DNA of 64,000 nt from a virus. Each line of letters opens with the position of its first letter. The stretch's first letter is position 1. The notes under the pieces are model-generated. The model searched no databases and had not been told where the DNA came from. It saw only the letters and a program-made list of their open reading frames with translations. The position numbers were made by a program, and so were the translations under genes. Where the stretch lies: positions 11,157 through 75,156 of the IMG/VR virus record IMGVR_UViG_3300020020_000027; one strand, given 5' to 3'. This document shows, piece by piece, positions 2,549 to 63,917 of the stretch.

Positions 2549-3256
2549 ATGCAACAAAAAACCAGGACGGTAGTTCTCACTCCGTCTAGGTCACGACCAA
2601 ATAAGCTAGATAGAATGCTAAATTCTATCGCATCACTGTCCGTTGGTGAAGTGGCAGTCTATGTCGGAATAGATATGGATGACCCAAGTTACCAAGACTA
2701 CCAAGACCTACTAAAGAAATACAAAATCCTAACAATATTCAATGATTCTAGGAAGACTCTTTCGGCCTGGACAAACTCTCTGTCCACAGCCGCACTATAT
2801 TCCTATGGAGTGGATGGAACTTATCTAGTTTCCATGGGCGACGATCACGAAGTGAAATCTGACTTGTGGAACCTTTCTCTGATGAATTCCATTCATGCCC
2901 TAGATGGACCAGGCTTTGCCTACGGGGACGACACAATAAATGGATCTGGGCTATGTACCGCCTGGATGGCCTCAGGTAAAGTGGTTAACGCGCTAGGCTG
3001 GATGATGCTGCCAAACTGCAAGCACTTCTATGTAGACAATGCCATTATGGAACTTGGTCAAACCTCAAATCGGATTGCATACAGACCAAAAGTTGTGATT
3101 GAGCATCTGCACCCAGTAATTGAGAAATCGGAAATAGATAAGACTTATATAGATGCTAGTAGTAACATCGAAAAAGATTTATTAGCTTTTCGAAACTGGC
3201 ATGTTGGAGCACAATTCCATCAAGATGTTCAAACAATCTTAGAGGTGACGTGGTAA
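2549..3256 (+). CDS. Putative GT-A fold glycosyltransferase
   Basis: N-terminal LTPSRSRP, GIDMDDP, acidic MGDDH motif, HFYVDN and C-terminal IEHLHP, typical of phage GT2-like proteins. Confidence 0.7.
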   Translation: MQQKTRTVVLTPSRSRPNKLDRMLNSIASLSVGEVAVYVGIDMDDPSYQDYQDLLKKYKILTIFNDSRKTLSAWTNSLSTAALYSYGVDGTYLVSMGDDHEVKSDLWNLSLMNSIHALDGPGFAYGDDTINGSGLCTAWMASGKVVNALGWMMLPNCKHFYVDNAIMELGQTSNRIAYRPKVVIEHLHPVIEKSEIDKTYIDASSNIEKDLLAFRNWHVGAQFHQDVQTILEVTW

Positions 3257-4188: not shown

Positions 4189-4259
4189 TGGAGTATAGTG
4201 TAATGGTAGCACGCTTGCCTTTGGAGCAGGCAGTTTAGGTTCGAACCCTGATACTCCAG
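4189..4259 (+). tRNA. tRNA-Gln (UUG)
   Basis: Acceptor TGGAGTA/TACTCCA, D loop with TGGT, anticodon arm CTTGC-CTTTGGA-GCAGG, T loop GTTCGAAC. Confidence 0.92.
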
Positions 4260-4260
4260 C

Positions 4261-4650
4261 ATGTATGAAATAACAAAAATCCTTGAGTGTGAGGACTGCG
4301 GTCGAGTATTAAAAACCTTGACTGAATACGAAAACCAACAGGTTGCGACAAATCCATACAATTATATTTCTTACTGCGATGAATGTAAAGCTAGTCGCGC
4401 CAAACGGGGTGAAGCAGCAATCTACGCAATTCATCCTGGCTGGATAACCTCACTATATGATGGTGATCGACACTATATTGGAGTGGGCTCATTAGTTCGA
4501 CTTTATGAATTAAGAACAGGGGAATGGATCCCTTGGCACAATAATAAAGGACGTGATCCGAATAAATACATCCACCTTTATCCAAGACCAGACGGAAACT
4601 ACGGTAGGCCAGAAGATGTCAAAGGACAGACCAAACAGGATAACGTTTAA
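4261..4650 (+). CDS. Hypothetical protein with CxxC pairs
   Basis: ORF directly after the tRNA; CEDC and CDEC motifs. Confidence 0.55.
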   Translation: MYEITKILECEDCGRVLKTLTEYENQQVATNPYNYISYCDECKASRAKRGEAAIYAIHPGWITSLYDGDRHYIGVGSLVRLYELRTGEWIPWHNNKGRDPNKYIHLYPRPDGNYGRPEDVKGQTKQDNV

Positions 4651-4831
4651 TATAAATGACATCGACTCCGAAACACTAACGAAGCTTTCCGAAGATACCG
4701 GACAGACCAAGACAAACGTGCTAATTAGGTCAATCAAACTTTATTCTCTCTTGTACAGATCAATAGAGGATGGTAGCAAGTTAGTGATAAGATCTTCCAA
4801 CGGTGATGAGGAAGTAATTAGGTTCCTTTAG
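4616..4831 (+). CDS. Ribbon-helix-helix (CopG-like) DNA-binding protein
   Basis: RITFNI strand followed by helix LTKLSEDTG and helix KTNVLIRSIKLY; start refined to ATG 4616. Confidence 0.65.
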   Translation: MSKDRPNRITFNINDIDSETLTKLSEDTGQTKTNVLIRSIKLYSLLYRSIEDGSKLVIRSSNGDEEVIRFL

Positions 4832-11289: not shown

Positions 11290-11787
11290 ATGGGCGGTAG
11301 AGGTTTAAATAGAAGAGACGACCCCGTAGCCGGAAGAGAGGCTTCACTACCCGGCGAATATCGTGCTGTCCTGGCCTTAAGGCGCAAAGGAGTTGGCTAC
11401 GATGATATCGCGGAACAACTTGGCTACGAAAGTAGATTCGAAGTTATTGATATCTTAAATCGAATCTACCGAAACGTCAAGCCAATCAATGTCGAAGAAG
11501 TCCGGGATAGTATTGAATCACAAATAGATGACTTGACTACCGTATACATGGAACCAGCCCTTATGGGCAACGATAAGTCAGCTAAATTTGTCTTGGCCGC
11601 ATTGAAACTTAAAGCTCAAATACGTGGTGCCATTCTACCGCCACAAGTCAACGTGCAAATAACCGGACAGAAACCTTGGGAAAAGGTCTATGCCACGACG
11701 TTGTCCGATGTGGACGAAAAGGGAAACATCATCGAGGGAGATGTGATCGAGGATGAGTCAGAATCAAAAGAAGAATATGATTTTTAG
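11290..11787 (+). CDS. HTH DNA-binding protein, resembles terminase small subunits
   Basis: AGGTG RBS; LALRRKGVGYDDIAEQLGY HTH, helical GNDKSAKFVL...KAQIRG segment and beta-rich tail. Confidence 0.55.
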   Translation: MGGRGLNRRDDPVAGREASLPGEYRAVLALRRKGVGYDDIAEQLGYESRFEVIDILNRIYRNVKPINVEEVRDSIESQIDDLTTVYMEPALMGNDKSAKFVLAALKLKAQIRGAILPPQVNVQITGQKPWEKVYATTLSDVDEKGNIIEGDVIEDESESKEEYDF

Positions 11788-40827: not shown

Positions 40828-42249
40828 CTAGAACGTTTGGCCATCCATCGTGACAAATCCGGCATTGGCCAAGGTAGGGTACTTTTCCCTTACTTCTTGA
40901 GTAAAAAATCCACTGTCGGACAGTCCTTGCTTAAGCTCGCTTTCGTCTATTACATCAGAAAGACGAACACGCATACCGAGCTTAAAAATGTGCATAATGC
41001 CATATCGTAGAGCATCCATAGCATGGTCGTCACACTTCTTGGCTTGTTCTCTTGGGTCTCGGTCTTTTCCTCCTTCAGCAGACTTATAATTGTTGAATTC
41101 CCGAATCGTGTTTTTGCAGGACGGATCGACATATAATCCAGGTACTCCACCGCCCCTATTTTTGAGGAACGTCTTGACCAAGTCGACACCTTCACGCCAA
41201 TTATCCTTACTTAGTGGGTCTCCTACACAGGGACCATACTTAATCGATATATCCTGAATCGCCTCAGGGTCAGCCGCGTCTCCAAAAATCAAGTCCAACT
41301 GGTAACCAGCGGGGTTCTCCCGCTCCCGCCAAATTTGCATGTGCTCATCGAGGGTCAATTGGGGCTGGTAATGCTCCCGCCAGACATGCACAGTGTCCTG
41401 TGGACTGACCTGAAACTCAATCGCGGCGCAAGGGTTCACAAAACCAAAGTCAATAGACATAAAATTAGGCCAATCTGGCCGGTATTCATGCCTGCGCACA
41501 TGGGTACGCTCCATGAACTCCTTATAAATTTTACCACTAAACGAGGTGAAGTCCGCAGCTATTTCCTGTTCAAACGCATCCTTCGACATATTGCGCTTGA
41601 GTCGCTTGATCTCAGGGTCATCATAACCCTCGGGGAATATTACACTGTTATCCCAACTAGGGTATTGCCAGCTTTCATATTCCGGCTCACGGTCATCCAA
41701 ACCGCGCTGCCACAGCTCATAAAAGAAATTCTGTCCCTCAGGCGTCGAAGTAAATATCGCTTTACCGCGCTTATCAGATAAAGCAGGCTCAATCATCCGG
41801 TCCCAGGTCTCGCGCTGGTGCTTGGCAGCTTCGCACATCACCACCAAATCGAGCCCGTCACCAACTAGTGTTTCCTTGCGCTCCGCGCTGTGCACCTCAA
41901 TCCTGGTGTCCCAAGGAAACTGGATGTACATGTCACCTTGCTTGGCATTATATGCCTTTCTGATCTCCGGGAACTTGATGAACTCCAGCTTCATCATAAT
42001 ATCGGCCCAAATAACCCTGAATTCCTTCTCTCCGAGCACGTACGTGGGGCCAACCAACCAAATTCTCTTATCAGGAACAAAAAGGAACGGTTCTATATCC
42101 TTAGCAGTCATAAAAGTTTTGCCAGCTCGACGTCCACAAGCGGCCACCTTAAACCGGGCATTACTTTTATGGAATTCTACCTGCTTGGGGTGCGGCTGGT
42201 AGCCAATCATCTTAAAAAATTTAGCCTTATCGACTACCTGCCGCTCCAT
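40828..42249 (-). CDS. terL: Terminase large subunit
   Basis: PHPKQ, CGRRAGKT, CEAA (Walker B variant), STPEG.N.FY, SIDFGF.NP and DDHAMDALRY. Confidence 0.93.
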   Translation of the reverse strand: MERQVVDKAKFFKMIGYQPHPKQVEFHKSNARFKVAACGRRAGKTFMTAKDIEPFLFVPDKRIWLVGPTYVLGEKEFRVIWADIMMKLEFIKFPEIRKAYNAKQGDMYIQFPWDTRIEVHSAERKETLVGDGLDLVVMCEAAKHQRETWDRMIEPALSDKRGKAIFTSTPEGQNFFYELWQRGLDDREPEYESWQYPSWDNSVIFPEGYDDPEIKRLKRNMSKDAFEQEIAADFTSFSGKIYKEFMERTHVRRHEYRPDWPNFMSIDFGFVNPCAAIEFQVSPQDTVHVWREHYQPQLTLDEHMQIWRERENPAGYQLDLIFGDAADPEAIQDISIKYGPCVGDPLSKDNWREGVDLVKTFLKNRGGGVPGLYVDPSCKNTIREFNNYKSAEGGKDRDPREQAKKCDDHAMDALRYGIMHIFKLGMRVRLSDVIDESELKQGLSDSGFFTQEVREKYPTLANAGFVTMDGQTF

Positions 42250-42384: not shown

Positions 42385-43987
42385 TTATCTCATCTCCGTA
42401 ACCACTGCTATCTCACTAACGTCTATGTTGAATACCACATTTCCATACTGATCTCCAATTTGGACCAGGTTATGCAAGAACTTCGCTGGGTGCTTCTGCA
42501 CGTATCCAGTAAACTCTTTACCACTTTTAAGGGTAATCTTTATGCTGGTTCTAGCATTATAACAATCAGTCAGAATTAAATTCCACGTGGAGGGTTGGAC
42601 GCCATCCATATTAGTGCCTCTCGATACCACCAACTACCATCATTGCAACATAAAATTCCATCACTAGTATACAAAACGCACTTGTGCAGGCTGCCTTGAT
42701 CATCTAAATGATGAATGTTCCTAAGGCCACCAACTTTTCCAAATTGCCTGAGCAATTCTCCACTATGACCACATACTGGACATGGACCACCATACACTTC
42801 GGTGAATACCATGTCGAATGTAGAAGCCATATTATCTCCTAGGTTGCGCCCGCAAGCATTCCACATTTACTACAGTGTGCACCCAACCTAGGTCTACCAC
42901 TATGACTATTTGGGTTCCACAGTTCTTGCAAGTTACCACTATCAATTCCTCAATTTAGCCTGTCGGTCGGAGAAGCTTTGGCGCCACTTAGGGCTACTTC
43001 AATTGTGGCTCACGAGATGCCGCCAGCAGGGCAATAAAGAATTCGAGAGCCGGACTGGTGTCGGTCGCAAATTGCGTGGTGAGTTGGAGGTACAATCTAG
43101 CTGCTTCATCACGAGTTAAAACCATCTTCAGCTCTATTGGTCCATCTTGTTCTCTAAATGTACTAAACTCTGCCATAATTCTCTCTATCTTTGTCTAGTT
43201 GATCTTTAATACCCTGCAATGGAGTCGAGTCTGGGTGATCCCAAGGAAGACCGCCCCTAGACACAGAACTATATTCACAGCTCTTTAGCTGACAAGCATG
43301 AAGTCCTCCGGCTGACCAATAAAACATAGGAATATCTTTGTGTATGGGACATACACAGCTTTCATCGCATTGGTGTTGAATTTCGTTCTGCTCGTCTTTC
43401 ATGGTTTTCCCAATCCTTTGTGGCCAACGTCCCACTAATGATGCTACAGATCATCGCCGCTATAGGCCATTTAGTCACCAGAAATACTGCTACATAAGTT
43501 ATTATAAAGAAAAAATTAGTGTAACAAATTGCATAAATTAATTTAATTAGTGTTGCTCTGTTATGTGGTTTCATATTCCCCTCCGGCAGCGACGTTTCGC
43601 AAAATAAAGGATATAATATTTTCCCACGTAGGAACGAATTTTGTAATAGTCAGACTCTGCATAAATAGCATATTTATGCTTTCCTGTCTGATAGATGCGC
43701 CAGGTATATAAAGGGTGTTGAACCTGAAAAATTATTGGTGCTGGCTTGAATTTATTCATCATTCGCCGTCCAATGATTTTTCATTGTGTCACTCGCTTAA
43801 ATTGTCCTGGAGTCGGTGTCAAACACCAACAACAATAATCGTGTTCCGGTATGCTGCAATCAGCCGTAGGTTCATGTCCCCAAATCATACAAGTGGTCCA
43901 TTCTATTATTGTTCTGAACCAATCAGGCTTATACTCGGGCGGACCATCCCATAGCCAAAACATTATCTTTTTTCTCATTGTAACCAC
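42385..43987 (-). other. Cluster of small hypothetical - strand ORFs upstream of TerL
   Basis: Several 60-100 aa ORFs, some with RBSs, including a TM peptide (43362-43574); starts uncertain. Confidence 0.5.
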
Positions 43988-44757
43988 ACAGTCTTGGCAT
44001 GAGTAGTTTTTACTTTAGGATGTATAAATACCGGTATTCCAATAGTGGCGAGACGATAACAGAAGCTTAAATCTTCGCCGATAATGTGCCCCCGAGAATT
44101 GCGCTTGGCGGTCGGCATGTGCACTCGCTCGAACCAACGGCGCCCGTAGAAGTTTTGCACAGCCATCGCTGCGCCCCGTGAAATCAACAGAGCGGCGGTT
44201 CCAGTGCCCGCTACCTGTATGGGCTCGGACGCCTCAAGATCAACGTCCTGCTTCAAGGTAAACGATAAGATTTCTTTTTTCTCTTTTCCATCTTTAATTT
44301 CTCCTGATTTATTTTCTTCAGTTTCGTCTGCTTCAACGGTAAATATAGATAGGTCATAAGCAGTAATAAACTCTTCAGTCAAGTATCCGCCGAAGCCATC
44401 TTTATCGGTTTTGGTCATACCTTTACATAGTGCTCCGATTACGTCTTTGTTTGCTTGGAGAAGATTAGCTACGGTGTCTGGAGCAAAACCCATATCAGTG
44501 TCTATCCACCAGATATGAGTGGCATCAGTTTTATCCAAGAAGTATTCCATCAGCTCGTTCCGAGCTTCTGGAATACTTAAGGGAGATGATAGGGCAGATA
44601 TTGTATCCTTAGTGAAAAGGTCAGGGTCCGCTGTGTTCGATAGCTTTAATAGGCTGTGCAGGAAACTATGACTGACATTTTCACCATGTATATAAGCTAT
44701 TTGCACTTTAGGTTTGGGTGGGTTAGTAATTTCGGACATGACACGAGTGTAAACCAT
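43975..44757 (-). CDS. GT-A fold glycosyltransferase
   Basis: IPEARN, WWIDTDM (DxD), GTGTAALLISR, GEDLSFC and THAK. Confidence 0.8.
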   Translation of the reverse strand: MVYTRVMSEITNPPKPKVQIAYIHGENVSHSFLHSLLKLSNTADPDLFTKDTISALSSPLSIPEARNELMEYFLDKTDATHIWWIDTDMGFAPDTVANLLQANKDVIGALCKGMTKTDKDGFGGYLTEEFITAYDLSIFTVEADETEENKSGEIKDGKEKKEILSFTLKQDVDLEASEPIQVAGTGTAALLISRGAAMAVQNFYGRRWFERVHMPTAKRNSRGHIIGEDLSFCYRLATIGIPVFIHPKVKTTHAKTVWLQ

Positions 44758-45732
44758 CTACCAGATTTAAGCGAGCTCAATTATTGAGTAGATAATACTA
44801 TGTTTTTTATGTATTCTAGGTTGACTATGTTGATTCTCATAACGCTATATAGAAAATAAACTATGAATATTATGTATACCTAGATGACATAGTGTAATAC
44901 CACCACTCGATCTAACGACCTAGTATACTAAGATCAAAAACGATCAATGCAGTAAGAGAGACCGGCTCGCGCCCGATTTGCCCTTTTTGTACCTTTTAAT
45001 ATAGTTTCTTACACTTTGTTATACTTTGTTATACTTTGATACAGTATATACACAATTGACCGATATGATACGAAATGTCCGTTTATAAGATCATATAATA
45101 CGATATGACTTGATCGGTCTGGAATACTCTCTTCCGGCACACTATAATACGATATGTCCGTATTATACACATATAGGGGGGTGGGTATATATGGGGATAT
45201 GTCCGATATATGCGCATAATAGGTCAAGATCACCGCGGGGGTGATCAATGAATGCCCATATATGAGGATATGTCCGGATTTATACGATATATATCCATAT
45301 AGTGGTGTGACGAAGGTCACAGATCAACTTCCAGAATATGCCCATATGTCCGAATTATACCTATATACCCCCATATAGCAGGGTAAAAGGGCATGATCAA
45401 CTGCCCCACTGTAAAGGGATAAAATAGGACATTTCACACTATATAGGGACAAACCAGGGCATGGTATAGTGGACTTAGTCGAGGGAGCTCAAGATCAAGA
45501 GGCAAAACGGGCATACCGAGACAAAAGACGACAAGATACCACAAAGAGGGGAAACGGTACATGTCCGACAAGTACGGACATAGCCGGTGAAATCCTCCTA
45601 AATGGTCCTTTGAACATTAAATAGTGGATTTATCGGAATTAGGTGGATATTCCCTGGAATGAGGGGATAAGCCTGATGTATCCGGATATATCTCGACGTG
45701 TCCAGACAAAACCGGACATAAGGAGATATACC

Positions 45733-45987
45733 ATGGAAAAGCGCTACAAAGTCGGAAATGTCACCGATTTCGGGAAATTGCTAGCCGAAGCGGTCAAATA
45801 CGACAATTCGTCACGTATAGTGTCATTATACGAAATAGACGACAAAGACGAAATGTCCACTTATCTACTGATAATTTGGGAAATATCAGTAGATAAGACA
45901 GAATATGAACTAAGTCGGACAAAATACGAAATAGACGAAACAGCTATCTTTAGTTGGATAGAAGCTGCTTTTGGAGTTTCTGTCTAG
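45733..45987 (+). CDS. Small early hypothetical protein
   Basis: Strong AAGGAG RBS before ATG 45733. Confidence 0.6.
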   Translation: MEKRYKVGNVTDFGKLLAEAVKYDNSSRIVSLYEIDDKDEMSTYLLIIWEISVDKTEYELSRTKYEIDETAIFSWIEAAFGVSV

Positions 45988-46372
45988 ACAAAATACGACA
46001 TTCTAAGACATGTCGAGATATACCTGGATACATCAGGATGTTTTGTGAGAACTTACCTTAATTCCGAAATGGCACGATATTCCCGGTTATATCCTGACAT
46101 GTCCGAGCTAGCGCTAGACAAAAACGGACATATCACGATATAAGGAGTTAAAATGATACGTTCTATGACAGATCACGCTTTGTCCTGCGATGTTTGTTAT
46201 TCGTGGGTTACGTCCGGAGATTTCGGAAATAACCCGAAATGCCAGACAGGTACTGAAATAAGGCAGGAAATCATCAAAGATAACGAAATGGTCTGGGAAA
46301 GCACCATAAGCTAGGACAAAAAAGGTCAAAACAGGACATGTCAGGAAATAACTGGACAAAGGAGCTTATAGC

Positions 46373-46690
46373 ATGTCATTTCAAGAAATAAACGGACAAG
46401 TCGTAGAAGATGCACCATATCACGACATGTCAGATCATGCCTGCTCATTTCCGGAAGATCAGTCCAAATGCGACTTTATCGTACATGTCGGCGTATGTGT
46501 CTCATATACGGAAAATTACGAAACGCAGGAAATGGGCGACAAAGTGTACATGGTAGTAAATATGCCAGATTCCGCCAATATGGTGGAAATGCGGGAAATA
46601 ACCGACATGTCCGGACAATGGCCGACATGGAAGGCAAATCCAGACATGCCACTTATATCCGTCGAACCGTGGAAAATCGGACTTGTCTAG
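46373..46690 (+). CDS. Small early hypothetical protein
   Basis: AAGGAG RBS. Confidence 0.6.
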   Translation: MSFQEINGQVVEDAPYHDMSDHACSFPEDQSKCDFIVHVGVCVSYTENYETQEMGDKVYMVVNMPDSANMVEMREITDMSGQWPTWKANPDMPLISVEPWKIGLV

Positions 46691-48801
46691 ACATAGTCTG
46701 ACACGACGGATTTAACACCCCAAAGTAGTATAAAACGGACTAGTCTGACATAATAGGACATGTCAGGATATATCTGGGAATATCGATGCTGGGTATGACA
46801 TACTAGGACAAATCTGGACTTATCTGGACGAAAGCGGACATAGGAGTACTTATGTACGTAATTCGGACCAAACACGGCTGTTTCATAGCAAAATCGGACA
46901 TTTGGTGGCATGCCGTACGTATCTACTATTTCTGGACAGATCAGGACGTATCGTGCAATATGCACGTAAATGGAGTAATAGTGGACATGTAGTACTACCG
47001 AGCACCAAATCGGACATGTCCGGATAAGTCTGGTTTTGTCCTAGTATGTCGAGATATGTCGCATTCATGGTGCTTTGTCCTAATTTGACCCAGTACGTCT
47101 AGAAATACACCAAGATCACCCTATTTATATAGATGGATCGCGATTTGTCAGGAATTCCAGCACAAAATATGACAAATCGGACATGTGTGTACATATAGGG
47201 TGGGGGGTGTATATGGCGGATATAGGTGTACAAAAACGGACAAAGGAGTGCATAGTGTTCGAATACACCATAAGTGTGCTCAAAAGGAAGCAAATGGTAC
47301 TATGTGTCACATGTAGCCTATGTCGGGACATAGTAGTATCAAAGCCGACATACAGGGACATACCTATAGATGGCGGACATTTCAGTGCATCTATGGACTT
47401 ACATGTATGTACCGCTCAAAGGGGAAATGAGACGCACAACCACGCAATTCACCAGGCATGGCTCGATGAGAACAAATCGGTCATAGGGGTCAGATCATGA
47501 TAATTCTCCTTATACTGGTCGCATTGCTCACAAACGCCGACAAAACGGGCATCACAGTCGGACCGGACTATTGCCACATAGGTGTGCAGACTGAGCCAAA
47601 GGCCGCAGCCTACGCACTTTGCTACATACCGGACAAAGAGGGTGAAAGAGGTGAAATCGGATGATTGACCTTATAGCGGTCATTATGTCCTTAGTGGCCC
47701 TTGTCGGACCCTTCGGACTTATCGTCGCGAGTCTACTCAAATCATGACAAACACCGACGAGTCGCACGATATCGGTATGTTCTGGGCCAATCTGTACGAT
47801 TCTAGCTGGATTGCGCGTGATCTGTCCCAAACCATGACAAGCATGGACGGAGCGGACAGACTCCACCAAATCGGACAACTCGGGATCACTGCGACAATAG
47901 TGATCTTTGGGTTATTGGTGGTATACCTCACAGACTTGTACCAAGAGGTCAAATCGGACGTAAGGGAGTAAGCGAATGTTCTTCGCCATCATGGTCATTG
48001 CGGGCATAGTGTCCATTTTCGCCGCAGACCGGTACTTTAACGACAAAGAGCGCTGAGTAGTACAAACCGGACGAACTAGTACAAACCGGACACATCAGTC
48101 ATAAGGGTTAAACTAGGACAAAGCATCACGATTGCGGCATATCTCCCGATATAGGATCAATACTCGTCATGTCCGACTTACTACCCCAATCCGGAGCAAA
48201 TCGGACATCTGGAGTCAAACATGGGCAAGCACGAAGCAAAGGGACACGCCTCCCGCACCGGACCAATCGGACAGCTCACCCTAAAGACGGCAAAGCACGT
48301 AGTTCACCCCATAGTGCACGTTGTGGCCATTATAGGACTCCACACCGCAGCCCTAACAATCATGACCAAAACGCCCATACTGCACTTGATCGGGCTTACG
48401 CACTGATTCCAGCACAGAGTAGCACATATAGTACAAAACGGACATAGCACCCTATATGCGCGTATATCAGTATATTTCCATACTTGAGTGTGTGTGTATC
48501 AGTATATTTCCATACTTGAGTGTACAACACAGACTTGATCCACCATATCCGCACAAAACGGACATGGCGGGCATTGATCCTATATCGGACATATACCGAC
48601 AAGTGGCTCATACGTGCCATGTCCGCGCTTCGTTCAAACGGGTCTATCGCGACGTTTCGGACATATCGCGAGATTTCGGACACATCACCCAATTCGCCGG
48701 TATCTACCAATATCACTACAACAGTTATATATCGGTCGGTGACGCTCAAAGGTACCTAAAACAGTACAGTTAGGACAAAACGGACAGTTAGGACAAATGG
48801 C

Positions 48802-50427
48802 ATGACACGTCACGAACTATCCCAGATAGTCGCAAACCAGGCCAAACTGTTCAAAGGTCACGTAAGCGACAAAGGTGACCTAGTGTTCCCAACCGCCGGA
48901 CAAGCCACAATGTTCGCACAAGCGGTCGTTTGGGACCTTCAGGTCGAAGCCTACCTTCCGGACAATATGGACATCGAAGACACAGACGTCAAAGTGACCG
49001 TAAAGGGGCGATGATGAACAAACTGACCTCATCCGGGCTTACCAGGGCATTGAAGGCAATTCGGGACGCAGACCCCGATGGCGGACATTCGGGTGGAAGC
49101 ATCCAAATGCTCCACAACCACAAAGACTGGGCAATTCGGACATACGGGCTGGAAGTGTGGAAAACGTACATGGCGACCAGTTGGGACAAACCGGACAACT
49201 GGGACAATGAGTGCGAAGGTCACGAATCACTCAAAGGCGAAGATATGGGCGAATCGGTCTATTGCGACGGCTCGTGCGTAACGGACAACTGGGGTAAGTC
49301 ATGACAACTCACACCATAACCTCAGGTATCGACCAAACCGGACAAAAGTTCCAGCTAGCCCATGACGGACAATTAGCACTAATGTACTCATACGAGGGCA
49401 ATAGGTGGAATTATATGTCAAGGGCGACAATTCGGTCACTCACCAAGCTGGCTCACCAAATGGGCATCAAGTGGGACAAACCGGACAAAATACGCGAACT
49501 GTACAACTACCGCGTAGCGACCAAACCGGACAGAGTGCGGAAAGCTCTCGAAAGGGACAAGAAGTACGCACCGTACCGAATAGCACAAATGGGTCAGGAC
49601 GACTGAAAACGGGCAAATAGGAACGAGACTCTAGGATTAGGTCGTTCGAGGACAAAGCGGACATGGCGCGCATAAGTCACTTGTCGGTAATATGTGATCA
49701 TTGTGATCATACCCGGTCATAGGCCACCTTGTCAGCGCATATTAGTGCATATAGGCTTAAATCGGTAGAAAATAGGACAGATCGGACAAGATGGACATAA
49801 TAGACAGAACCGACATGTCCATTATCAGGGGAAATAGATCCATTTAAGATTATGGATCGGCAAATCGACGGAATTCCAAGCATATGCGTCTATATACATG
49901 TATATAAGATCATGAGGGGCATAAGTTACCCGTGAGTAGAACGGGTGCGTGATCATGCATGAATATAGATCGACATCTCTAAATTCGGACAAAGAGGTCA
50001 TTGCATGAATTTCTACGAACTAATGCGCATGGCGAACAAAACAGGCGAAGCTGTGCTTTTGCCGGACAACGTACACCTAAGGCGTCCAATGTCGTCGACA
50101 ACGGACAGATCGTCCAAATCGACCGGAACCAGCATCATAGGGTTCTTTGAGATGTTTCGCGACAAAGACGGCAGAAGGGTCTTCATCGGCCAAGACGGAC
50201 AATACCGGCGGATGTGACGTATGCCAAAACCGGACACAAAGCACGAATTGGGCATACAGCTCGGAACGGTCTTCGACACCCTTATGGCGACATACTGCAT
50301 CGCTCTGGACATACCGGACAGCAAAGGCGAATTCGCTGGGATCGACCCAAACGGCGACATAACCCGCTATGACGTCCGTATGGTGGATTACATCCACATG
50401 TCCGAATATCCGCTGATAGAGCTGTAA
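48802..50427 (+). other. Small early genes within the motif field (48802-49014, 49011-49304, 49301-49606, 50005-50217, 50221-50427)
   Basis: ATGA-type coupling and RBSs; encoded peptides are rich in PD/TGQ/DK from the DNA motif. Confidence 0.55.
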
Positions 50428-50457
50428 ACATCAAGACAAGGTGGTCTATGTCTGGGT

Positions 50458-51084
50458 ATGAAACTCAGACAAATGGGACAGATCGTACTGAAGGGTACGA
50501 ATCGGACAAAGGAGCTCAAAGTGGTACAGAGGAAGCTATCCAGGTGGAAGCGCTTCAATCGGGCAATCCACAGCGAAACCGCCCGTACCTGGTCGCACCG
50601 GACACCGGCGCTCATGGTGGCCGGAGTCGCCCTTTACGTCAGTTACTGGCACATTCGGGGCGGCGCGCTTGATCATGGCCTCGACGCCGTCAGCGCCGCG
50701 ATCTTGCCGTTGTCCGTGGACGGCATGGTCATCACCTCAGCTCGCTATGTCACCAAAGCCCAAACGATCTTGGGCAAGACGCTGGCGATCATCGGCTTCA
50801 TCCTCGGCGTGCTGGCCACGCTCGCCGGTAACCTGATGAGCAGCGACGGGACGCCGGTCGGCACGGGCTTTGCCGCCTGGCCAGCCATCGCCGTGGTGGT
50901 CACCGGAGCGATCTTGCACTGGGGCGACGCCAAGGCCAAGCCGAAGAAGAGCACCAAGGCGCCCACTAAGGCACCCAGCAAGCCCGCACAGCCCTCAACC
51001 CCCGCTACCCCAACCGCCACTACCCCCAACGGCTCGCACGCCGCACAAGACCTCTCAACGCCGTTTGTGCCCCAAGCAGCTTAG
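50458..51084 (+). CDS. DUF2637/SpdA-like membrane protein
   Basis: VSYWHI...LPLSVDGM...TLAGNL...AAWPAIAVV pattern, about four TM segments, Pro-rich tail; high GC. Confidence 0.7.
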   Translation: MKLRQMGQIVLKGTNRTKELKVVQRKLSRWKRFNRAIHSETARTWSHRTPALMVAGVALYVSYWHIRGGALDHGLDAVSAAILPLSVDGMVITSARYVTKAQTILGKTLAIIGFILGVLATLAGNLMSSDGTPVGTGFAAWPAIAVVVTGAILHWGDAKAKPKKSTKAPTKAPSKPAQPSTPATPTATTPNGSHAAQDLSTPFVPQAA

Positions 51085-51095
51085 TAAGCTAAGTT

Positions 51096-51141
51096 ACCCC
51101 TATCGAGTCCACCCTGAGGTGATCTTGATAGGGGTTTCTTT
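51096..51141 (+). terminator. Intrinsic terminator
   Basis: ACCCCTATCGAG...CTTGATAGGGGT stem followed by TTCTTT. Confidence 0.6.
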
Positions 51142-51414
51142 GTCTACTTAGTTACTTAGTTACTTAGTTACTCTTGGTAACCAGGTAGCACAAAAGCACA
51201 AAACGGACAAAAGGAACATTTGGGTTCAATAAGGACAAGAATGATCTGGATCATCCATATATTTAAATGGATCGCGAATCCTCGAAAATTCCCTGAGCTG
51301 CACTTATCCAGATTTCTTGTTAGTGGGAAGTATGGAGGGCGTGTGCGTAAAGGGTCTGTACAATCGAGCAACAGGCTGAGAGCCAATCTGAGCCAAGATC
51401 TTTAAGAGGGGTAG

Positions 51415-51915
51415 ATGACCACCGATAGTGCAAGTAAACGACTCCAGATCGGTCCCAGGATGCGCGAAGCATGGGCCTACATCGCGGCCCATCCTGGCTG
51501 TAGCGAGTACGAAATCAAGATCAATTTTGACCAGCGGCTGTTGTCCCGTCTGGTCAGGGCCGAAATGGTCGAGCTACGTCCACCAGCGCAAGAAGGCTTG
51601 GGCCGTCGTGCGCACGCTCTGACCGCGTGGCAGCACGACGTAACCAAACGTCGATGGGCCAAGGATTCCGCCTATCACGAAGCACGTAAGCGCGTCTATG
51701 ACGACTATGAAACCTATACCGTCCCATGCCCACACGTGAGCTGCAAAGGCTCCCAAGGTCAACGCTGCACGGGAGACTTCTACGGCCGCGCTCGCAGTGC
51801 GCCTCACTACGAACGCTTGATCGTCAAGCTAAACAAGCTCTATGAGCTATACATAGACAACAATAACAAGATCACAAAACCGTCGCCAGACGACAACACC
51901 TCTGACCAGCCCTGA
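51415..51915 (+). CDS. Hypothetical protein, winged-helix-like N-terminus plus Zn finger
   Basis: AYIAAHPGCS..EI...LSRLVRAEMV; CPHVSC...C...HYER. Confidence 0.55.
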   Translation: MTTDSASKRLQIGPRMREAWAYIAAHPGCSEYEIKINFDQRLLSRLVRAEMVELRPPAQEGLGRRAHALTAWQHDVTKRRWAKDSAYHEARKRVYDDYETYTVPCPHVSCKGSQGQRCTGDFYGRARSAPHYERLIVKLNKLYELYIDNNNKITKPSPDDNTSDQP

Positions 51916-63846: not shown

Positions 63847-63917
63847 CGCGGGTGTAGTGGAGTAGTACCACGTCGGGCTCATAACCCGAAGGCGCCGTGC
63901 AAATCGGACACCCGCCA
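63847..63917 (+). tRNA. tRNA-Met (CAU), initiator type, atypical T arm
   Basis: C1:C72 mismatch, acceptor GCGGGT/ACCCGC, anticodon arm TCGGG-CTCATAA-CCCGA with three G:C pairs. Confidence 0.8.

Follow-up and report, generated by a model that had tools for sequence, protein, structure and literature searches.

BldC of Streptomyces, a regulator that binds the whiI and smeA-ssfA promoters (PMC5859096; structures 6AMK and 6AMA), is the closest described counterpart of the element considered here, a dense field of GGACA motifs in the early operon of a soil phage (IMG/VR record IMGVR_UViG_3300020020_000027, contig of 75,156 bp). The window, that is, the whole stretch of DNA analysed, consists of 64,000 nucleotides (bases 11157-75156 of the contig), and the field occupies its positions 45070-50520. 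One BldC protomer sits on each 9-bp direct repeat in a directional, head-to-tail arrangement, and the optimised whiI-opt site reads CAATTCGGACAATTCGGACA (PMC5859096). The BldC consensus is AATT-N4-C, in which the A/T tetrad is read through a narrowed minor groove. Extended filaments are formed on longer sites, at least two repeats were needed in vitro, and homologues of the protein are widespread in bacteria (PMC5859096). The field resembles these sites in its 9-bp unit (AATTCGGAC for BldC versus AAA-N-CGGAC in the phage) and in the directional direct repeats at 9-10 bp, BldC protomers being placed head-to-tail and extendable to a filament. The difference is one of scale: BldC sites comprise 2-4 repeats in promoters of the bacterial chromosome, whereas the field has about 110 units over 5.5 kb, including coding sequence in three phases.

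D29 gp36, a Xis/MerR-like protein of a lytic mycobacteriophage, is a repressor that acts on phage genes through a few direct repeats (PMC12266134). Like p85, the BldC-family protein of the present phage, gp36 is a small phage-encoded winged-helix protein with the Xis/BldC fold; it binds direct repeats and represses the genes downstream, but its repeats are GC-rich (GCGGC), occur in few places and form neither a kilobase field nor a helically phased series through genes. The small winged-helix proteins P2 Cox, 186 Apl and lambda Xis oligomerise on direct repeats about one helical turn apart, as is proposed for the track described below, but their arrays, at a switch region or at attP, have ~3-7 boxes, and the sequence is unrelated. 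The stoperators of Cluster A mycobacteriophages number roughly 20-35 per 50-kb genome. Like the field, they are asymmetric sites spread in large numbers through phage genes and oriented with transcription, and their repressor acts on elongation as well as initiation (PMC6550527, PMC9283540). Unlike the field, they are 13-14 bp long, mostly intergenic and unphased, and they serve as binding sites for the immunity repressor in temperate phages. The field does not belong to this class: its unit is 9-10 bp long and phased, and no integrase or repressor was found among the open reading frames (ORFs) scanned.

From the sequence and from a structural model of p85, we suggest that the GGACA field is probably a track on DNA to which a winged-helix protein of the BldC family binds, with p85 as the likeliest binder. 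Below, G000 denotes the phage of the window, G001-G004 its field-bearing relatives and G005 a relative without the field.

The GGACA Field and Its Unit

An earlier note on this DNA, made without database searches, had counted about 68 GGACA and about 21 TGTCC by hand at 45070-50520. Both numbers are exact, while the rest of the window predicts ~7.6 and 6 (~14 in total). The forward copies are thus ~9-fold enriched in the field; on the + strand, GGACA reaches 5-18 per kb in 45-51 kb, against 0-4 in most other bins (maximum 6). The core is longer than the pentamer and reads AAA-N-CGGACA-W, CGGACA being present 43 times versus 2.4 expected. The consensus of the field unit is cAAa(T/C/A)CGGACA(A/T), and a position weight matrix (PWM) scan of the sense strand gave 110-138 units versus 12-19 expected. 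At the four bases before CGGAC (-5..-2), the share of A/T is 85/82/78/63% in the field, whereas GGACA sites in the rest of the genome have 49-64%; hence the A/T tetrad is specific to the field sites.

The gaps between successive GACA sites fall into bands of 9-10, 19-21, 27-31 and 37-40 nt, with almost none between the bands. In a Rayleigh test of the pair distances, the period was 9.6-9.8. For lags 5-35, R was 0.68 and the 99th percentile of the null 0.33; for lags 36-70, the two values were 0.43 and 0.32. Phasing was also found in G002 and G003, and across G000, G002 and G003 the period was 9.6-10 and R reached 0.81. In all three phages, the register is gone beyond ~70 nt. Consequently, the phasing is real but local, with arrays of up to ~7 units and no kilobase coherence, and at a PWM score of at least 5 bits 62 of the 82 chains are single units. 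The palindrome at 47012-47021 and the 10-bp registers at 46741-46840 and 45981-46040 that had been pointed out are all present, as are 9-bp steps at 49775-49793. The enrichment and the periodicity that the earlier note had expected are there, the latter over short distances. The other arrays are listed in Table 1.

Arrays of this kind are not restricted to the present phage. A triple-unit pattern scan of viral contigs returned >115 matches, and the 80 examined each contained <=20 GGACA per 3 kb, which indicates that small arrays are common and dense fields rare.

Several known elements of similar appearance were considered and rejected. The SpoIIID operator (TAGGACAAGC) looks alike, but its flank differs (the field has C, not A, before GGACA), no PF12116 match was found in the phage, and there was no sign of an endospore-forming host. 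The CsrA site (A-N-GGA), DRACH, a two-quartet G-quadruplex, the DnaA box and a -35-like hexamer do not fit the position weights.

Selection on the Nucleotide Sequence and Conservation

The field is occupied by ~15 small genes, which lie on the + strand and have GGAG ribosome-binding sites; most of these genes have full-length homologues in related contigs (35-70% amino acid identity). The motif is found in all three codon phases, and its density in genes is about equal to that in spacers, which rules out a by-product of peptide repeats; the full-length homologues likewise rule out that the region is non-coding. Between orthologous gene pairs, some sites are kept and many are gained or lost, while the density is maintained. 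Since the units lie in all codon phases of real genes and turn over at a kept density, they are selected at the nucleotide level.

The field is located at the same place in the related phages G001-G004 (large terminase, terL, 61-92% identity) and is absent from G005 (terL 51% identity). It was not found either in the distant relatives L021-L024 (terL 54% identity). In L023 (6600-7800), and also in L021, L022 and L024, about ten copies of (T/G)(T/G)ACCGTACC are situated upstream of terL and may represent a different operator set.

A BldC-Family Protein as the Candidate Binder

The field consensus in the five phages is cAAatCGGACAaatc, which is 1-2 positions off the optimised BldC site. The unit has the make-up of a BldC-type operator, an A/T tetrad followed by a C:G pair 4 bp downstream, although the C of GGACA is invariant by construction in this test. 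The units also follow one another head-to-tail as direct repeats, 9-10 bp apart.

p85 is the only BldC-like protein encoded on the contig. It matches Pfam HTH_17 with 28.7 bits (cut-off 27), and its best PDB sequence matches are the BldC-DNA structures 6AMA (E 3.4e-8) and 6AMK (E 5.1e-8). In a Foldseek search with the AlphaFold model of p85, the top seven hits were BldC chains (rmsd 1.4-1.9 A, 42-44% identity, TM ~0.8 on the target), and weaker fold matches included P2 Cox (4lhf) and Pukovnik Xis (4j2n). Both sequence and fold thus place p85 in the BldC family. It is identical to BldC at F21, V23, R30, W31, T42, G44, H46, R47 and R48, and K26 is replaced by R. The aligned DNA-contact residues of p85 are R38, R42, H61, R62 and R63 (BldC K26, R30, H46, R47 and R48), and the aligned interface residues are F33, V35, W43, T57 and G59 (BldC F21, V23, W31, T42 and G44). 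Contact and interface residues are largely kept in the p85 orthologues of G001-G003. All four field-bearing relatives (G001-G004) have an orthologue, whereas G005, with no field, lacks one. p85 differs from BldC in its extra N- and C-terminal segments and in a 3-residue insertion before the wing, and its binding to the field is predicted.

The binder might instead be a BldC-type regulator of the host, in which case the field would be a sensor of the host developmental state or a sponge through which the phage would steer host development, with p85 as a mimic or competitor. The near identity of the unit to the optimised Streptomyces site and the wide distribution of BldC homologues in bacteria agree with this, and ~110 sites would be a large sink, yet the phage's own homologue keeps the contact residues and co-occurs with the field. 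The hints about the host point in different directions. The capsid is similar to those of Arthrobacter phages, and there is a DUF2637 gene, a family that we take as a possible sign of an actinobacterial connection; on the other hand, terL relatives were found in metagenome bins labelled Saccharibacteria, Chitinophagaceae and others (several phyla), and the genome GC of 45.6% is far from that of Streptomyces. On balance, we regard a host binder as unlikely.

The suggestion of the earlier note that the motif is selected for a polymerising protein has thus gained a counterpart in the head-to-tail BldC and a phage homologue in p85, whereas the binders and roles that it named are not supported. Its ribbon-helix-helix candidate (4616-4831) has no Pfam family match, its HTH/TerS-like candidate (11290-11787) has only a weak match to a sigma region 4-like HTH, and the protein at 51415-51915, with a weak zinc-finger match, is found in only two of the four relatives that carry the field. 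No specific support was obtained for a phi29 p6-like end coat, a packaging or ejection signal, a centromere or a decoy.

Strand Bias and Reverse Copies

The predominance of one orientation and the chain of inverted repeats interleaved with the field were both missed by the earlier note. The 21 reverse copies consist of five in a group at 45076-45351, eight in inverted-repeat arms, for which the interleaved chain accounts, and eight scattered singles. With one more just past 50520, the reverse singles amount to 1.8 per kb versus ~1.1 elsewhere, i.e., near background.

The group of five is situated in the divergent intergenic region (975 bp), where the leftward late genes and the rightward small genes part at ~44.8-45.7 kb. 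By eye, each of its units is preceded by a TATAAT-like box reading on the - strand. It is possible that the five units are operators at leftward late-operon promoters, a promoter role being assigned by eye. The orientation flip beside the late operon is visible also in G001 and G003.

This flip at the divergence point, together with the position of the field next to the packaging-gene operon, would also suit a polar DNA-handling signal: a small-terminase or pac array, an ejection-ratchet track on the first-entering DNA, or Chi-like protection from a host exonuclease. Small terminases also bind phased repeats. Nevertheless, 5.5 kb with ~110 sites far exceeds any known pac site, no small terminase was identified as binder, and CGGACAW counts in five candidate host bins do not exceed those of the reversed-pattern control, which makes a DNA-handling signal highly improbable. 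A Chi-like or uptake-like signal of the host was rejected by the same comparison in these bins.

Inverted Repeats Bracketing Gene Cassettes

Seven abutting inverted-repeat pairs of 27-41 nt tile 45672-50461 and enclose 1-4 genes each (Table 1). They are all the pairs of this kind in the 75 kb of G000, and all fall inside the field. The same stem chains were found in G001, G002 and G004, plus a few extra pairs elsewhere; G005 has no such pairs, and other relatives without the field have none or one isolated pair. The arms are partner-specific, true partners scoring 19.5-26 in the arm-pairing matrix and off-diagonal combinations 4.5-14.5. Across the five phages, the sense-strand mismatches comprise 53 G.U, 20 A.C and 22 transversions, and 40 columns in seven orthologous stem families are changed on both sides. 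Arm pairing is 0.84 within a phage and 0.76 across phages. In minimum-free-energy folds all seven stems form, and the sense duplex is stabler than the antisense one in six of them. The loop-side arm ends carry GTC(C)/GAC(A) pairs in 5/7 stems.

Given the covariation and the sense-strand G.U bias, the repeats are most likely mRNA stems of the early transcript, akin to rRNA processing helices. They show the long-range partner specificity, compensatory change and sense-strand bias of RNase III-type stems, and their cleavage is putative. Like the leader-trailer helices of 16S/23S rRNA and the RNase III sites of T7 early genes, with which only this layer of the locus is comparable, they are stems that delimit units in a long transcript; unlike the rRNA helices, each mRNA cassette has a long-range stem of its own, 27-41 bp in length. 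Three early genes (45733-46690) are reordered in the close relative L017 (11945-12925, reverse strand), so the stem-bounded cassettes appear to be shuffled as units.

The motif itself might instead be read in the transcript, CGGACAW being the binding or cleavage site of an RNA factor, or the partner of UGUCCG stem arms that guides mRNA folding or processing. In keeping with this, the ~9-fold enrichment concerns the forward orientation, while reverse copies are near background outside the stem arms and the five-copy leader group, and the field lies within a unit that ends at a strong terminator. The G.U excess and the covarying columns of the stems, their formation in the predicted folds with the stabler sense duplex, and the GTC(C)/GAC(A) pairs at the arm ends agree with it as well. 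However, the motif is no more or less accessible in predicted RNA folds than 5-mer controls of the same composition, its single-substitution variants do not have a wobble-tolerant pattern, and the solved DNA complex accounts for the 9-10-nt lattice, with its A/T tetrad and CGGAC, far better than do the RNA rules tried. We consider that the motif is unlikely to act at the transcript level.

Other sequence elements were noticed in the same region. The bipartite element ATGGATCG-N10-GGAATTCC occupies the three largest non-coding gaps (47123-47158, 49842-49877 and 51257-51292) and splits the early region into blocks. Near these elements are CATATAGG-type boxes, of which there are six in the field and 1-2 elsewhere. 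Both are candidate internal promoters or regulator sites. There are two copies of the G-rich element ATATAGGG(G)TGGGGG(G)TGTATATGG (45169-45194 and 47191-47216), and a 32-bp tandem direct repeat is located at 48457-48520, in the non-coding gap after the gene 48221-48406.

Proposed Function of the Track

Based on the BldC comparison, we suggest the following scheme for the binding track. Each unit of ~9-10 bp, in which CGGAC(A) follows an A/T-rich tetrad, would be the docking site of one protomer. As the units are placed head-to-tail along the direction of early transcription, the protomers could polymerise into short filaments of up to ~7 units, which would be densely scattered over the whole first operon, inside and between genes. 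Once made, p85 would coat the early operon and shut it off by promoter occlusion and by roadblocks to elongation. The five reverse-oriented sites where the late operon begins may be a further target of p85. A separate RNA layer on the same DNA would be formed by the seven long-range stems, which bracket gene cassettes in the early transcript. We infer the shut-off, and a possible action at late promoters, from the facts that BldC and D29 gp36 are repressors, that p85 is encoded in a later module, and that the five reverse sites adjoin TATAAT-like boxes.

Several points weigh against a BldC-type track. Its function is derived purely by inference. The register is lost beyond ~70 bp and most chains are single units at the strict threshold, so that a continuous 5-kb filament is not implied; moreover, BldC required at least two repeats in vitro (PMC5859096). 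The one-strandedness and the co-extension with the transcription unit also fit an RNA-level signal, and the interleaved repeats show RNA-type selection. Furthermore, BldC-like genes with 40-51% identity occur in many other viral contigs, and the CGGACAW field was absent from the five such genomes tested; the gene alone therefore does not predict the field. Finally, the G004 orthologue has K for R30 and R for H46 at the contacts, and the motif is kept there nonetheless.

Genomic Context

The phage is of the siphovirus type, with terL (40828-42249), a Mu-like portal and the major capsid gene on the - strand. The + strand encodes a SNF2 helicase, a PD-(D/E)XK nuclease, a primase-polymerase, a RecD-like helicase and a UDG-PolA fusion. 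The DUF2637 gene that closes the early unit is probably a recent import into it. The clusters of the protein atlas matching the phage were viral only, and no nucleotide match was found in the phage GenBank collection. The sequencing runs listed for the sequence were all soil DNA runs, two of which may be the source sample, and no RNA run was among them. The contig ends have no terminal repeats. Scans with promoter and terminator consensus sequences gave counts not above those of shuffles, and the Rfam scan gave only tRNAs at the gathering score.

Table 1. Features of the GGACA field, its inverted-repeat cassettes and associated elements; positions refer to the window unless stated otherwise.
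Feature	Position	Strand	Details
Forward track, cAAa(T/C/A)CGGACA(A/T)	45427-50604	+	68 exact GGACA, ~110-138 PWM units; ~15 small early genes and spacers
Five reverse-oriented units, ATATGTCCG on the + strand	45076-45351	-	45-79 bp spacing; divergent intergenic region; family D4
Longest visible array, ~10 units, 10-bp register	46741-46840	+	right arm of stem I5 abutting left arm of I2
Four-unit array, 9-bp steps	48759-48795	+	just upstream of gene 48802-49014
Three-unit array, 9-bp steps, coding	49179-49206	+	inside gene 49011-49304; peptide WDKPDNWDN (translated by eye)
Cassette 1, stem I4	45672-46037	+	arms 45672-45702, 46007-46037; gene 45733-45987; 90% complementary, partner-specific; 30/31 pairs in minimum-free-energy fold
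Cassette 2, stem I5	46075-46785	+	arms 46075-46104, 46756-46785; genes 46153-46314, 46373-46690; 93% complementary; 29/30 pairs folded
Cassette 3, stem I2	46797-47050	+	arms 46797-46829, 47018-47050; ORF 46852-46992
Cassette 4, stem I1	47051-48145	+	arms 47051-47091, 48105-48145; genes 47255-47500, 47497-47664, 47744-47971, 47976-48056; 41 nt, 85% complementary
Cassette 5, stem I7	48146-48588	+	arms 48146-48175, 48559-48588; gene 48221-48406
Cassette 6, stem I3	48594-49689	+	arms 48594-48626, 49657-49689; genes 48802-49014, 49011-49304, 49301-49606; compensatory changes vs G002, G003 (family Fm)
Cassette 7, stem I9	49707-50461	+	arms 49707-49733, 50435-50461; genes 50005-50217, 50221-50427
DUF2637 membrane-protein gene, last of the early unit	50458-51084	+	57% GC, almost motif-free
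Terminator-like hairpin followed by U-tract, end of the field-bearing early unit	51096-51142	+	-30.2 kcal/mol, z-score -6.5
p85, BldC-family protein, 85 residues	G000:C1:10283-10540		616-873 nt before the window begins; replication genes follow

Some further genes deserve mention. A Ro60-like protein with TROVE and vWA domains is encoded upstream of the window (L033:4401-6029, i.e., contig bases 4401-6029); G001-G003 also have its gene, G004 and G005 lack it, and no Y RNA was matched by Rfam at the gathering score. The phage has 10 tRNA genes, eight in L033 and two in the window (4189-4259 and 63848-63916). The proteins 2549-3256 and 43975-44757 match PHROG families labelled as glycosyltransferases, and the former also matches a family labelled as DNA methyltransferase. 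These matches hint at DNA modification. The protein 43975-44757 is conserved only in field-bearing phages.

Implications

As a tentative extension, which we hold with less confidence than the binding track itself, the early operon may be doubly encoded. A chromatin-like track of BldC-type filaments would silence or switch the whole programme, and each cassette would have its own stem; since the docking unit would also build the stem arms, cassettes could be swapped without losing either layer. We found no paper describing a BldC-type track that runs for kilobases through a phage operon.

The known sites of BldC/Xis-type proteins comprise between two and a handful of repeats. Should the track be confirmed as such, this binding mode would be scaled ~30-fold to an entire operon, and the track would constrain the sequence of ~15 proteins in all three reading phases. 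Switching off a block of genes in this manner would be new for a virus and would resemble heterochromatin or stoperators more than a classical operator. In addition, the same bases would serve three codes at once, for protein, for the DNA docking lattice and for the RNA stems, a clear example of overlapping codes in nature, and p85 with its track would provide a programmable, directional DNA-coating module.

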